NCBI GenBank assembly: GCA_020348925.1
Contig: CP070758.1
Location: 4,525,775 to 4,589,774 of the forward strand
Length of the DNA: 64,000 bases
Direction: 5' to 3'
Source: Gemmatimonadota bacterium
GTDB lineage: Bacteria > JBHIER01 > G020348925
Below are positions 25,455-29,122 of this stretch, one piece after another. The translations under genes were made by a program, and so were the position numbers. Every line of letters starts with the position of its first letter. Position 1 is the stretch's first letter. The notes beneath the pieces were generated by a model that worked only from the letters and a program-made list of their open reading frames with translations, was not told where the DNA came from and ran no database searches.

Positions 25455-26174
25455 TCAGTCTTTCAATTCCGGGTATTCGTGACGCTGCATCACCTCAGGT
25501 GTATTCGTGTTTGCTCCTCTGGTTGATAAGAGTTTTGATACTGGATAGGCTTCCATTTTTTCAGGATCAAACGGTTTGAAGAAGGATTGAATATCGTCCT
25601 GGGTCATTTCATTCTTGAGCCAATCTCTCTCTCGTTCTCGGCGAATGAGAACGGGCATTCTCTTTTTCGTATTATGGATTTTTTCCATGAGTGTATTTGC
25701 TGCTGTCGTTATGATCGAAAATGTACGGATTGTTTCTCCGTTCTCTGGAATCGTCCAGGCATCCCATATTCCAGCCAGGGAGAATATGTCATGCTCCAAA
25801 AGCGTTATGTAATAGGGATATTTTTTCTTTTCGACATGCCTCCACTCAAAAAAACCATCAACAAGAACGAGACAGCGTTTTATTCGTATCGAATGTTTAA
25901 ACGACGGTTTTTCGAAGATGGTCTCCGATCTGGCGTTCAGAGTTTTCGTCCTGAATGACTTGGCCGTCTTTTTGTTTTTGACCCACTGGGGTATGAGGCC
26001 CCATTGAAAGAATTGAATCGCATCCGGTTCTTGATTTGAAATAATAGGGAGGAGGGGGAAAGAGAACCCGGAGGCATGGTAGATCGGTCTGAACACAGGC
26101 GGTTCAACGAATTTTGCGTTGAACCGATTCTCTATGCTTTCCCTGTTTTGATCGAGGGATATGTTGTAGCACAT
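25455..26174 (-). CDS. SOS response-associated peptidase (SRAP; YedK/HMCES abasic-site-protecting family)
   Basis: N-terminal Cys2 (MCY), WGLIP, NARSET, RCLVLVDGFFEW, IH...RMP. Confidence 0.92.
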   Translation of the reverse strand: MCYNISLDQNRESIENRFNAKFVEPPVFRPIYHASGFSFPLLPIISNQEPDAIQFFQWGLIPQWVKNKKTAKSFRTKTLNARSETIFEKPSFKHSIRIKRCLVLVDGFFEWRHVEKKKYPYYITLLEHDIFSLAGIWDAWTIPENGETIRTFSIITTAANTLMEKIHNTKKRMPVLIRRERERDWLKNEMTQDDIQSFFKPFDPEKMEAYPVSKLLSTRGANTNTPEVMQRHEYPELKD

Positions 26175-26269: not shown

Positions 26270-26836
26270 CTATTCATTCGGAAACGTTTCCTGGATACCA
26301 TAGTTTTGTGTTCTTGCATCCTCGAATAGAAATATGTGGGGTGGATAGTAGGTGAACATTGAAAATGCTGCTATCAACATAACCATCACTATTACTGCAC
26401 AGAGTTTTGCAGGAGGACTTTTCTCCGGGGCAGTTAAGAGTTTGTAACTTACGAGTTGTCCAATGGCTATTGAGATGAAAAATATTGCAATGTCAGCTGA
26501 TAAGTAGTGGCGGCCTGTGATTGCTGTATACCCATAGAACATCACCACAATGACGAAGGGCATTGTAAGCAGTCCCGAGGTCTTCGCCAACCAGAAATTA
26601 TGTGCCACCTTCTTGGTGCATGGATATTCGATGAGGGCGAAGAGCATTCCAGGCCAGAAAGCAAGCTTGAGGTGTTCCCAGACGCTTTCGTTGACGGCGA
26701 ATATGAACGCTCCTGGTGGCCATCGGCCTACCCACTCAAATGTGAAATGGAATAAGGAGCCAACAATAAAAATAAAAACCAATCCCGACAGTTCCCATTT
26801 CAGCACAGAGTTCTGTTTTTTGGAAATCCGGTTCAT
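26270..26836 (-). CDS. Conserved membrane protein (DUF6512-like)
   Basis: GSLFHFTFEW...VNESVWEHLKL...FTYYPP..LFED; about 6 TM helices. Confidence 0.75.
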   Translation of the reverse strand: MNRISKKQNSVLKWELSGLVFIFIVGSLFHFTFEWVGRWPPGAFIFAVNESVWEHLKLAFWPGMLFALIEYPCTKKVAHNFWLAKTSGLLTMPFVIVVMFYGYTAITGRHYLSADIAIFFISIAIGQLVSYKLLTAPEKSPPAKLCAVIVMVMLIAAFSMFTYYPPHIFLFEDARTQNYGIQETFPNE

Positions 26837-27046
26837 TTCTTCAAGTTTCAGTTTACAGCAGGTAAGCGTTTCTCCTCAACTGAGGATTGATTTAATCTGT
26901 AGTTGGTATCATTGTCATTTACGAAATAATCGGAAATCTCTAATATTCGTAAACATATCCTTCAATTCTTCAGATTTTATAGAAGTAATGTTTAATAGGA
27001 GTAATGACTATCAAAGACATTATGTTAGAAAGTCAATAGGTATGGT

Positions 27047-27104
27047 AGTCTCCTTTCTTTAATTTAGAGATGTAAGCGTACACACTCACAAAGAAAGGAG
27101 GACT
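27047..27104 (+). promoter_or_regulatory. Hairpin sequestering the transposase Shine-Dalgarno sequence
   Basis: AGTCTCCTTTCTTT (27047-27060) is complementary, with one bulge, to AAAGAAAGGAGGACT (27090-27104), which contains the RBS of ATG 27108. Confidence 0.7.
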
Positions 27105-27107
27105 CCC

Positions 27108-28178
27108 ATGTGTACAAGTAAAGGTATAGATTTTTCAGGTCAAGATTTTTTTCTTGGTCTGGATGTTCATGCCAGGCAATGGAGGGTCACCATTCGGTAT
27201 CATGACATGGAGTTAAAGACCTTTTCTATGGATCCGTCTCCTTCTATTCTGGCCCGGCACATGCATCGCCACTATCCCGGTGGTCGATCCCATAGCGTCT
27301 ACGAAGCCGGATTCTGTGGATTCTGGATTCATCGAGAACTGAGTAGGCTGGGCTTTGATAATATCGTCGTTCATCCTGCCGATGTGCCGACTTCCAATAA
27401 GGAGAAGGACAGGAAAAGCGACGCGGTCGATAGTCGCAAGCTGGCCCGGGAACTGGCAAGCAAGAAGCTCAAGGGCATTTACGTTCTCGACGAGTTCCAT
27501 GAGCAGCTCAGATCGCTGGTCAGGCTGCGAGGCAAGATCACGACCAACAGCACTCGGGTGAAAAATCGCATCAAAAGTTATCTGTATGTGAACGGGATTG
27601 CCATCCCTCCTCGCTCAGAGTGTTCTCACTGGTCAAATAATTTCATTCGGTGGTTGGAGAACTTGGAGTTCGCCTTTCCGGCTGGAAGTCAATACCTGAG
27701 GCTGTGTATCGACGAACTCCGTTATCACCGTCAGCAACTGACTCAGGTGACCACATCCCTGCGGACATTGGCCCGGTCCTCTGGAATCAACCATATCATC
27801 GAGCTCCTCCGTTCTGTACCAGGCATCGGCTTTGTCACAGCTATCACCTATTATGCTGAACTGGTCGACATGGATCGTTTCGCCGGGGCAGACCGTTTGG
27901 CCGGCTTCGTCGGTTTGGTCCCTTCCGTTTCCGGTTCTGGTATCACGGAGCATGTCCGAGGGCTCACCAAAAGACGAAACCGATATCTGCGATATCTGAT
28001 CATTGAAGCTGCCTGGAGGGCTATCCGCAAGGATGAGGCCCTCTTGTATAGCTTCAATCAGTTGACGAAACGGATGAAAAAACAAGAAGCCATCATCCGT
28101 ATTGCCAGGAAACTGCTCAACCGACTTCGCTCCGTCTGGAGAAAGGAGATACCATACCGCCCAGGTGTCATGGCCTAA
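27108..28178 (+). CDS. IS110-family transposase/recombinase (DEDD RuvC-like plus Tnp_20 domain)
   Basis: GLDVH, YEAG, KSDAVDS (DEDD); SVPGIG, GLVPSVSGSG (Ser loop), RYLIIEAAW, IARKL. Reading frame intact. Confidence 0.95.
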   Translation: MCTSKGIDFSGQDFFLGLDVHARQWRVTIRYHDMELKTFSMDPSPSILARHMHRHYPGGRSHSVYEAGFCGFWIHRELSRLGFDNIVVHPADVPTSNKEKDRKSDAVDSRKLARELASKKLKGIYVLDEFHEQLRSLVRLRGKITTNSTRVKNRIKSYLYVNGIAIPPRSECSHWSNNFIRWLENLEFAFPAGSQYLRLCIDELRYHRQQLTQVTTSLRTLARSSGINHIIELLRSVPGIGFVTAITYYAELVDMDRFAGADRLAGFVGLVPSVSGSGITEHVRGLTKRRNRYLRYLIIEAAWRAIRKDEALLYSFNQLTKRMKKQEAIIRIARKLLNRLRSVWRKEIPYRPGVMA

Positions 28179-28204
28179 ACCTGATAAGGAACCATCAGCC
28201 TACC

Positions 28205-28340
28205 GTGTGGACCGCTTCATGATTATCTGCAAGTCTACCGGACTTGTTTTTCAAAGACTGCGGCCACACACTGCACGATCTGATAATGACCTGCGGCTCT
28301 GAAGCTTTCAGATGTCCGCTCATAACAGTATGATGGGTGC
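28205..28340 (+). ncRNA. Putative bridge/seek RNA (target-binding and donor-binding loops)
   Basis: Two consecutive stem/internal-loop/hairpin units whose loop strands match the element's own flank and end sequences (see findings). RNA boundaries are approximate. Confidence 0.7.
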
Positions 28341-28466
28341 TTAGCGGGTTTGCACTTTTCAGAGAACAAGAAAAACCAGACGATGTCTCACCAACATCTC
28401 AGGAAGGAGTACACCCTGTCCGAAAAAATCGTCAAGAAATCTCTTGACTTTCTACATAACAGATAA

Positions 28467-28566
28467 NNNNNNNNNNNNNNNNNNNNNNNNNNNNNNNNNN
28501 NNNNNNNNNNNNNNNNNNNNNNNNNNNNNNNNNNNNNNNNNNNNNNNNNNNNNNNNNNNNNNNNNN
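28467..28566. other. Assembly gap (100 N)
   Basis: Run of exactly 100 N; the sequence on the right starts mid-gene. Confidence 0.99.
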
Positions 28567-28567
28567 C

Positions 28568-29122
28568 CTCAGAAATTATCTCCATGCGGACTTCGTCAGG
28601 AATGAGAGTGGTGACGGGGTCATCTACGGCGTGCGAGATGATCCCATCTCCGGCGGTATCCTCTTTTTCAGTACAATGGGCGATCCGGGTGCCAATAATC
28701 AAGTCTCTCCGGATGTCATCGCACCTCTGGATGGTGCCAGTACCGTCTTTACCTACGGTCCACCGGTGTATGAGGGGGCTGCCGTGAAATACGGTGGCGA
28801 TTCGTATAGAGTTGTCTTTTTCGGTTTCGGCTTTGAAGGTATCGTAAATTTGTTGGGAGACACCGAAACACTGCGGTCCCAGATTATGAGTGATGTCCTC
28901 TCGTGGCTTCACTTCAGCAACCAGAGGGGTGATGTGAACGGTGACGGAGAGATTGACCTGCTCGATCTGATTCGGACCGTCAATGTCAATCTTGGCGTTG
29001 AACCTGGGCCCACTGAATATGAGCTGTGGGCCTCGGACTGCACCAACGATGGCACCATCGACCTTTTTGACCTTGTGGGAACGGCCAATGTCATTCTCGG
29101 CACAGGAACCTGCGAACCGTGA
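28568..29122 (+). CDS. C-terminal fragment of a dockerin-bearing protein (5' end lost in gap)
   Basis: Frame open from the gap: LRNYLHADF...AAVKYGGDSYRVVFFGFGFEGI...; dockerin RGDVNGDGEIDLLDL...WASDCTNDGTIDLFDLV...ILGTGTCEP*. Confidence 0.85.
   Translation, partial: LRNYLHADFVRNESGDGVIYGVRDDPISGGILFFSTMGDPGANNQVSPDVIAPLDGASTVFTYGPPVYEGAAVKYGGDSYRVVFFGFGFEGIVNLLGDTETLRSQIMSDVLSWLHFSNQRGDVNGDGEIDLLDLIRTVNVNLGVEPGPTEYELWASDCTNDGTIDLFDLVGTANVILGTGTCEP

Follow-up and report, generated by a model that had tools for sequence, protein, structure and literature searches.

RNA-guided recombination by IS110-family elements was published in 2024 and has since been reviewed and engineered. In IS621, one of the systems to which we compare our locus, the core is described as CT (PMC11208158). 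Subterminal repeats and a long 3′ non-coding region are given as the marks of the IS1111 group (PMC11208160; PMC11187229), whose guide RNA is placed 3′ of the open reading frame by Durrant et al. (PMC11208160) and whose seekRNAs are reported to carry the match to the top strand of the target 5′ of the match to the bottom strand (PMC11187229). Many IS1111 elements, moreover, are stated to have multi-loop donor sites (Durrant et al., PMC11208160).

Here we analyze an element in a 64-kb stretch of DNA (hereafter the window) that is a clear new example of the RNA-guided recombinase system first described in 2024, and not a new kind of system or a new principle. In particular, positions 27018–28460 very probably constitute an autonomous IS1111-type member of the IS110 family, with 28205–28269 as the target-binding loop of its 3′-encoded bridge/seek RNA. 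What is new is the member itself together with its natural target, and close relatives may already be listed in the supplementary table of predicted bridge RNAs of Durrant et al. An earlier note on this DNA had called the recombinase probably uncharacterised; indeed, we identified no described element to which it corresponds, but the kind of system is known, and an NCBI model already names IS110 RNA-guided transposases. Raw sequence was enough for the scan to recognise an RNA-guided recombinase.

The element and its insertion point

The recombinase gene (27108–28178, + strand) encodes a 356-aa protein with a DEDD RuvC-like domain and a Tnp domain that carries a GLVPSVSGSG motif, as judged from Pfam, NCBIfam, homologs and the PDB. 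The protein matches PF01548 (E 3.5e-9) and PF02371 (E 2.3e-19), and its score with the NCBIfam model NF033542, 'IS110 family RNA-guided transposase', is 193.9 bits against a cut-off of 140. Residues D19, E66, D105 and D108, as well as G269, L270 and P272, are invariant in 27 homologs, in which S277 is nearly invariant; by analogy with the GL-P----S(T)G motif given in PMC11187229, S277 would be the nucleophile. A search of the PDB returned the ISCro4 and IS621 transposases as distant matches (E 6.7e-6 for the IS621 comparison), and the catalytic D, E and DxxD of the recombinase align with ISCro4.

The left subterminal inverted repeat (TTATGTTAGAAAGTCAA, 27020–27036, + strand) has the same motif as the left ends of relatives, and the right repeat (TTGACTTTCTACATAA, 28444–28459, + strand) is kept in relatives as TTGACTTTTTACATAA. 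The two repeats match at 16 of 17 bases, with one extra T, and fall within the 7–17 bp that define subterminal inverted repeats in the IS1111 group. A −10-like TATGTT (27021–27026) lies inside the left repeat and a −35-like TTGACT (28444–28449) inside the right one; promoter and terminator scans gave nothing beyond chance numbers. About 280–288 nt of non-coding DNA follow the gene (28179–28460), compared with 90 nt upstream of it (27018–27107). The Pfam matches, the match to NF033542 and the downstream non-coding region all bear out the earlier assignment to the IS110/IS1111 type with a guide RNA 3′ of the open reading frame.

The insertion point could be read from the copies of the element and from sites that lack it. 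The genome is a single scaffold with 205 gaps of 100 N, and besides the window copy it contains six partial copies (A–F), all of which abut gaps; the collapse of IS copies in assembly explains many of the gaps in this host genome. In the window itself, a gap of 100 N (28467–28566) covers the right flank. The left junctions of copies A, D and the window have TATCAAAGA(C/A)ATTATG in common, and the right junctions of copies B, C and F have ..ACATAACAGATA in common, with ..ACATAAC AGATA common to all right junctions; in fragment E, bases 27082–27179 of the IS are joined to AGATAATCATCAC. The flanks belong to a repeat family, of which the member at G000:C1:~4309382(-) is empty. This empty target reads ..GGTTATCAAAGA|TAACCATTAC, or, with longer left context, ..TTATCAAAGA|TAACCATTAC.., and as a family member ..AAAGTAATGGTTATCAAAGATAACCATTACTTTGG. 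The left flanks of the window copy and of copy D align in register with its left arm through TATCAAAGA, and its right part lines up with the right flanks of copies B and E.

Occupied counterparts of two empty sites were found in metagenomes. A 336-nt contig from metagenome X3 joins the 30 nt upstream of the ~4309382(-) site to the left end of the IS: these 30 nt are identical, the contig then aligns to window positions 26993–27197, and TATCAAAGA is followed by CATTATG. In metagenomes X1 and X2, the right end of the IS runs into CCAACACTCTG, the same sequence that follows AGATAA at the empty site near 3418643. By this occupied copy of the target from a sediment metagenome (X3), the insertion point is fixed immediately 3′ of TCAAAGA. 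At the empty sites the sequence is AAAGA|TAA, and C27018 is specific to the element, the empty site having T at that position. From the comparison of occupied and empty sites in the genome and the metagenome contigs, C27018 is the first base of the element and C28460 the last, with AG(A) on both sides and no other duplication at the junctions, as found for the IS1111 group. Thus the left target half TCAAAGA occupies 27011–27017, with the core AG at 27015–27016 and A27017 common to target and element, and 28461–28466 holds the second copy of the core, AGA (28461–28463), and then TAA, with which the right flank begins. The insertion sequence proper (27018–28460, + strand), whose extent agrees with the sequence common to the other genome copies, is ~1446 bp long when one AGA core copy is counted, and the relatives L039 and L040 are 1446 bp.

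The element looks intact and recently active, since there are at least seven insertion places in the genome and since metagenome contigs carry the IS at two sites that lack it here; the earlier note had likewise taken it to be intact. The left flank of the window copy was also sought, as an empty site, in 40 related genomes, none of which matched, the organism being without a close relative among those 40. None of the contigs from metagenomes X1–X4 bridges the gap at 28467–28566, and no joint that skips the IS is listed among them at the window locus. A 759-nt contig from X2 aligns over 88 nt to 28567–28654 and then continues leftwards with sequence that is neither IS nor target-like, so that the 100-N gap is a placeholder for several hundred bases.

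Several further features of this genome were observed. At the left flank of copy A (G000:C1:736387-736420), the left end of the IS abuts the palindrome family described below in the opposite orientation; the junction forms a 16-nt perfect palindrome, TCTTTGATATCAAAGA, and an intact target-like 14-mer lies on the other strand, an orientation that is not fully explained by a target reading of the flank. At the locus of copy E (G000:C1:1386941-1387038, minus strand; L006/L031), the 98-nt internal piece of the IS (window 27082–27179) covers the ribosome-binding site and the first 24 codons, and lies between unrelated sequence and a target-like right half, AGATAATCATCACTTTGGATTTTT; this piece may have arisen by deletion, by aberrant recombination or as a chimera of the assembly. 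The genome also contains a second, unrelated IS110-family gene (G000:C1:2693137-2693961), with 25% identity to the recombinase, and a fragment of a third (G000:C1:3494227-3494502). Two genes upstream of the IS, the window contains a 239-aa open reading frame (25455–26174, − strand) whose product starts with MCYN, an N-terminal Met-Cys that is presumably typical of SRAP/YedK-type abasic-site sensors.

The target-binding loop and its covariation with the junctions

The target-binding loop module (28205–28269, + strand), which was delineated by folding, covariation and a covariance model, starts 27 nt after the recombinase stop codon. Its outer stem is formed by GTGTGG-A-CCGC (28205–28215), with a bulged A at 28211, and GCGGCCACAC (28260–28269), and its inner hairpin by CAAGTC/GACTTG (28230–28246). 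A 76-nt stretch around the loop adopts this structure at −27.8 kcal/mol (z = −4.1), and only one of 200 shuffled sequences folds as well. Between the two helices, the 5′ strand of the internal loop contains the right target guide ATGATTATCT (28219–28228, + strand), which is complementary to the top strand of the core AG plus ATAATCAT and matches the right junctions of copies B and E as well as the family consensus. Read as its reverse complement, this strand gives C-AG-ATAATCAT, that is, the last base of the element, the core and the right target; within it, TTATCT (28223–28228) is the reverse complement of AGATAA (28461–28466). The 3′ strand (28251–28258, + strand), TCAAAGAC, is identical to 27011–27018 and comprises TCAA-AG followed by AC: the left target and core (28251–28256), then the first bases of the element (28257–28258). 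The left guide proper is therefore short, consisting of TCAA and the core. In the loop, the match to the top strand lies 5′ of the match to the bottom strand. The core is AG on the strand of the open reading frame and CT on the other, and the AG of the loop is invariant in 26 of 26 aligned loops, in keeping with the earlier proposal of a bottom-strand CT core as in IS621.

All of the coordinates and letters that had been given earlier for the stem, hairpin and loop strands are right to the base. The same account had presented TCAAAGAC as the left junction, which holds insofar as the sequence is identical to 27011–27018; only TCAAAGA of it, however, is flank, and C27018 is the first base of the element. 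By itself the 8-mer is at chance level, with 3 occurrences in the 64-kb window compared with 2.99 expected, and the significance of the loop accordingly derives from its position at the junction, from the occupied and empty sites, and from the covariation of loop and junction among relatives. Rfam 15, searched with 26500–28467, has no family that matches at E = 10 or below.

Among 8,000 scored candidates, 3,798 relatives of the recombinase were found at E <= 1e-30, and we fetched 77 loci from genomes (43–59% identity) and 80 from metagenomes (45–91% identity). The relatives have in common the inverted repeats TTATGTTAAAAAG / TTGACTTTTTACATAAC and the stem with its bulged A. In a first stem scan, which covered 74 loci and the window, 16 were without a stem and 12 picks were dropped by eye as false (L042, L047, L053, L060, L063, L067, L074, L081, L087, L106, L109 and L112), in several of which a covariance model later placed the module. 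This model was built from an alignment of 26 modules in which GAC, the loop AG and GC are invariant and compensatory changes occur at 12 of 14 consensus pairs. In the 64-kb window it has one match, the target-binding loop (48.9 bits, E 1.5e-13). It finds the module in 57 of 69 genome loci (25 of which were seeds; of the 44 loci not used as seeds, 32 have it) and in 63 of the 80 metagenome loci, an independent set, in every case on the strand of the open reading frame and just 3′ of the recombinase gene.

In these relatives, the two loop strands tend to agree with the flanking DNA, the 5′ strand (as its reverse complement) with what immediately follows ..ACATAAC and the 3′ strand with what immediately precedes the left repeat. 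We scored exact matches of at least 8 nt between each loop strand and the junctions of its own or of other elements. For the 5′ strand, own junctions were matched in 19/37 cases and crossed junctions in 33/1024 in a first set, and in 29/54 and 61/2071 cases, respectively, in a second; for the 3′ strand the figures were 18/37 and 34/1024 in the first set and 29/61 and 125/2338 in the second, all of these counts overstating the statistical weight because related sequences are not independent. (In the second set, loops were set by the covariance model, and 8 elements for the 5′ strand and 1 for the 3′ strand were left out for having too little flank.) About half of the elements thus match their own junctions, compared with 3–5% across elements, and the matching bases lie directly next to the inverted repeats. 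Elements whose stems and repeats are alike vary widely in the sequences that are matched, and where relatives differ in their loops but not in these parts, their insertion sites differ accordingly. The earlier note had proposed that homologous elements be collected and compared for covariation of guide and target, and in both sets own matches lie far above crossed ones. Together with the match of the loop strands to both target halves and with the empty and occupied sites, this covariation supports its reading of the module as a target-binding loop.

The two bases that follow the core on the 3′ strand are the first two of the element in 31 of 46 distinct relatives, compared with 8.4 on average and at most 17 in 2000 shuffling runs. 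Read on the other strand, these bases would occupy the place of the handshake guide of IS621 as it is described in PMC11208158, and by this analogy the AC at 28257–28258 is likely a counterpart of that guide.

The preferred target of the IS is the centre (the central loop) of a REP-like palindrome family with the consensus aAAAGTGA.tAaTA-TCAAAGA-tAAtC.TCACTTT. The family has 10 strict members as well as more degenerate ones (examples in G000:C1 are 4309394(-), 973370(-), 964402(-), 1210223(-), 1440640(-), 23657(+) and 601842(+)), is often followed by GGATTTTT..AAAAATCACTATTTCAACC, and is hereby marked as an insertion hotspot in the host genome. The 14-mer predicted from the guides has no exact occurrence in the genome, 7 with at most one mismatch and 78 with at most two, the rough expectation for the last class being ~30 in random sequence of the same size. 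Most of the 7 sites belong to the palindrome family, and two coincide with insertions of the IS. It had also been predicted from the guide that the right flank of the window copy, hidden by the gap, continues AGATAATC(A/T). This prediction agrees with copies B (AGATAATCAA) and E (AGATAATCAT) and very nearly with the X1/X2 contigs (AGATAACCAA) and the empty site at ~4309382 (AGATAACCAT), but not with copies C (AGATAATGTA) and F (AGATATTCTT). At these two of the six right junctions, only 2–4 bases beyond the core match the right guide; either off-target insertion is common, or other determinants act.

Some of the relatives were notable for their context. In L086 (at 3591 and 5710), L091, L101 and L069, two copies lie within a few kb, those of L086 with two guide-module matches 2.1 kb apart, an arrangement that points to insertions in tandem or next to each other. 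The metagenome scan yielded a single close relative (L116, 91% identity), whose sequence stops 17 nt past the gene and so is without the guide region. The right flanks of the Ignavibacteriota relatives L050, L051, L061, L064/65/69/71, L075 and L082 have GCTTGA....TGGTTAGGC-like sequences that resemble the target of ISKpn4/ISPst6. We take that target to be an integron attC-type site, and these relatives may be IS1111-attC-like elements.

A candidate donor-binding module and alternative readings

Downstream of the target-binding loop lies a second module (28282–28328, + strand), recognised by its identity to the right end and by its conservation, that is a candidate for binding the donor. It consists of a 5′ strand, GATAATGACCT (28282–28292), an inner hairpin (28293–28319) and a 3′ strand, CATAACAG (28321–28328), the last of which is identical to the right end plus core at 28455–28462. 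Relatives keep ..TTGCAGC-hairpin-GACTGTT(T/A)ATAACAG(G/A)TTGATT downstream of the loop. In a subgroup with the right end ACATAGAAGG, the 3′ strand of the module changes to GATAGAAGG, and the 5′ strand varies along with the 3-nt spacer of the left end, which is itself variable (ACTTCT, CCATCT, TTATCT): matches of at least 6 nt to the core plus left end occur in 8/25 own comparisons and 4/284 crossed ones. The inner stem shows compensatory changes at 5 of 6 pairs. In the window, ATAATG and CT match the left end with a 1-nt irregularity, the 6-nt match ATAATG having been read by eye. An outer closing stem was looked for in this module and not found. Taken together, these patterns of sequence make it probable that 28282–28328 is a donor-binding loop.

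A different division of labor would be that only a short seekRNA (28205–28269) is used, with the ends recognised by the protein through the subterminal repeats and with 28282–28328 as a structural or regulatory piece. We consider this unlikely, although there is precedent in ISEc11, for which an 82-nt short seekRNA alone is reported to have supported movement better than the long form and for which the donor flanks had to change together with the guide (PMC11187229). The matches of the donor module are short in the clade (4–6 nt), and conservation of the end sequence could alone give the match of CATAACAG. What speaks for the donor-binding reading instead is that both strands of the module vary with the ends they match, the 3′ strand with the right end in the ACATAGAAGG subgroup and the 5′ strand with the left-end spacer at the own and crossed frequencies given above, and that the inner stem is maintained by compensation at 5 of its 6 pairs.

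The loop at 28205–28269 could itself be read as the donor-binding loop, in which case TCAAAGAC and CAGATA would be the ends of the element, its boundaries would be TATC... and ...GATA with a TA core, and the loop would read the joined ends of the circle. Indeed, each of the three left junctions in the genome has TATCAAAGA ahead of the inverted repeat and every right junction finishes in CAGATA, so that both look at first like element sequence, and the flank of copy A fits a boundary after GATA when set against the other strand of the empty site. The empty site, however, already has TATCAAAGA, followed there by TAAC, whereas in the occupied site the same TATCAAAGA is followed by CATTATG, and on the evidence of the empty site and the occupied X3 contig we rejected the placement of the ends at TATC/GATA around a TA core. 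The flanks of the window copy and of copy D, moreover, are in register with the palindrome family through TATCAAAGA, the loop-matched sequences differ among relatives with the same inverted repeats, as expected of targets, and a separate module carries a conserved sequence that matches the ends. A donor-binding role for this loop is thus highly improbable. That the stem-loop is instead a transcription terminator or an mRNA-stabilising hairpin of the recombinase gene, with junction matches by chance, we dismiss as next to impossible: it does lie 27 nt past the stop codon, and the count of its 8-mer in the window equals chance, but no T-run follows it, it is absent from the list of the terminator scan, its internal loop with invariant GAC, AG and GC is kept across elements of 43–61% protein identity, and matches of at least 8 nt to its own junctions are roughly tenfold or more above those across elements.

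Proposed mechanism and comparison with known systems

With 28205–28269 as the target-binding loop and 28282–28328 as the probable donor-binding loop, the following course of events can be proposed, in which the making of the RNA, its binding to the protein and the chemistry of recombination are what we infer. The element would excise to a circle joined through one core, and the circle junction would put TTGACT (28444–28449) 17 nt from TATGTT (27021–27026), raising, by analogy with the junction promoters named in the review PMC13604230, the possibility of a promoter at the junction. The recombinase gene and the 3′ RNA would then be transcribed. In the target, the 5′ strand of the internal loop (28219–28228) would pair with the top strand from the core AG rightwards (AG-ATAATCAT) and the 3′ strand (28251–28256) with the bottom strand from the core leftwards (TCAA-AG), so that both strands of TCAA-AG-ATAA(T/C)CAT would be read around a 2-nt core. 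The AC of the 3′ strand probably acts like the handshake guide of IS621, stabilising the exchanged strand, and the second module (28282–28328) probably reads the joined ends, CATAACAG corresponding to the right end plus core and GATAATG..CT to the core plus left end. The DEDD/Ser recombinase, with the serine of its GL-P----SG motif, would exchange strands at the core, by which the circular form of the element would be placed after TCAAAG, within the central loop of the palindrome AAAGTGA..TA-TCAAAGA-TAA..TCACTTT.

As a natural case the locus is well documented: the insertion point and the target family are defined, the target is seen both empty and occupied, and in more than 100 related elements the guides vary with the targets. 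Its value to the field is material: as far as can be read from sequence, a clade of diverse IS1111-type scaffolds in which both loops and the handshake-like positions are present. It is possible, though somewhat short of probable, that the element represents a large undescribed IS1111-type clade of sediment and anaerobic phyla (Ignavibacteriota, Bacteroidota, KSB1 and others), characterised by a two-loop bridge RNA, a CT core and a covarying handshake, and here retargeted to the centre of a palindrome, where DNA structure may add to site choice. The size of this putative clade would be more than 3,700 homologous proteins at E <= 1e-30. Such a clade would offer many natural 'reprogramming' pairs for engineering, as well as a compact scaffold of a ~140-nt RNA and a 356-aa protein.

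The IS1111 seekRNA elements ISEc11, ISPa11 and ISKpn4/ISPst6/ISPa25, as described by Siddiquee et al. in 2024 (PMC11187229), resemble the element in the long non-coding region downstream of the recombinase gene, in the subterminal inverted repeats, in the GL-P----SG motif, in the order of the guides (top-strand match 5′ of bottom-strand match, overlapping at the insertion point) and in the choice of repeated palindromic or structured sites as targets. The module here is 65 nt, or ~140 nt with the second module, comparable to the short (82–96 nt) and long (148–172 nt) seekRNAs of Table 1 in PMC13604230, and the relatives L050, L051, L061 and L064 lie beside GCTTGA..TGGTTAGGC, which resembles the ISKpn4/ISPst6 target in the same table. 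Unlike in those elements, the target here is the centre of the AAAGTGA..TCACTTT palindrome family. The element is, in addition, known from sequence alone and is compared with them by description rather than by sequence identity, and its host is a sediment bacterium of uncultured type, to which none of the 40 genomes searched is closely related.

As described for IS621 (Durrant et al. 2024, PMC11208160; Hiraizumi et al. 2024, PMC11208158), an internal loop would here read both target strands around a 2-nt core, and two bases next to the core match the other substrate, as in the IS621 handshake guide; the second loop of IS621 reads the donor, and its counterpart here is the candidate module at 28282–28328. 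Both systems have a DEDD + Ser recombinase, but the two proteins are only remotely similar (PDB E 6.7e-6). Unlike in IS621, where the RNA is 5′ of the gene, the RNA here is 3′ of it, the order of the loop strands is reversed relative to the direction of the RNA, the subterminal repeats are long, and the donor module is without a clear closing stem. Finally, ISPpu10 and related REP-targeting IS110 elements are reported to insert into multiple copies of one conserved, stem-loop-forming intergenic sequence (bioRxiv 10.64898/2026.03.19.712850), as the element analyzed here does; whereas ISPpu10 is described as inserting beside a GC-rich 5′ stem-loop, the insertion here is in the centre of the palindrome.
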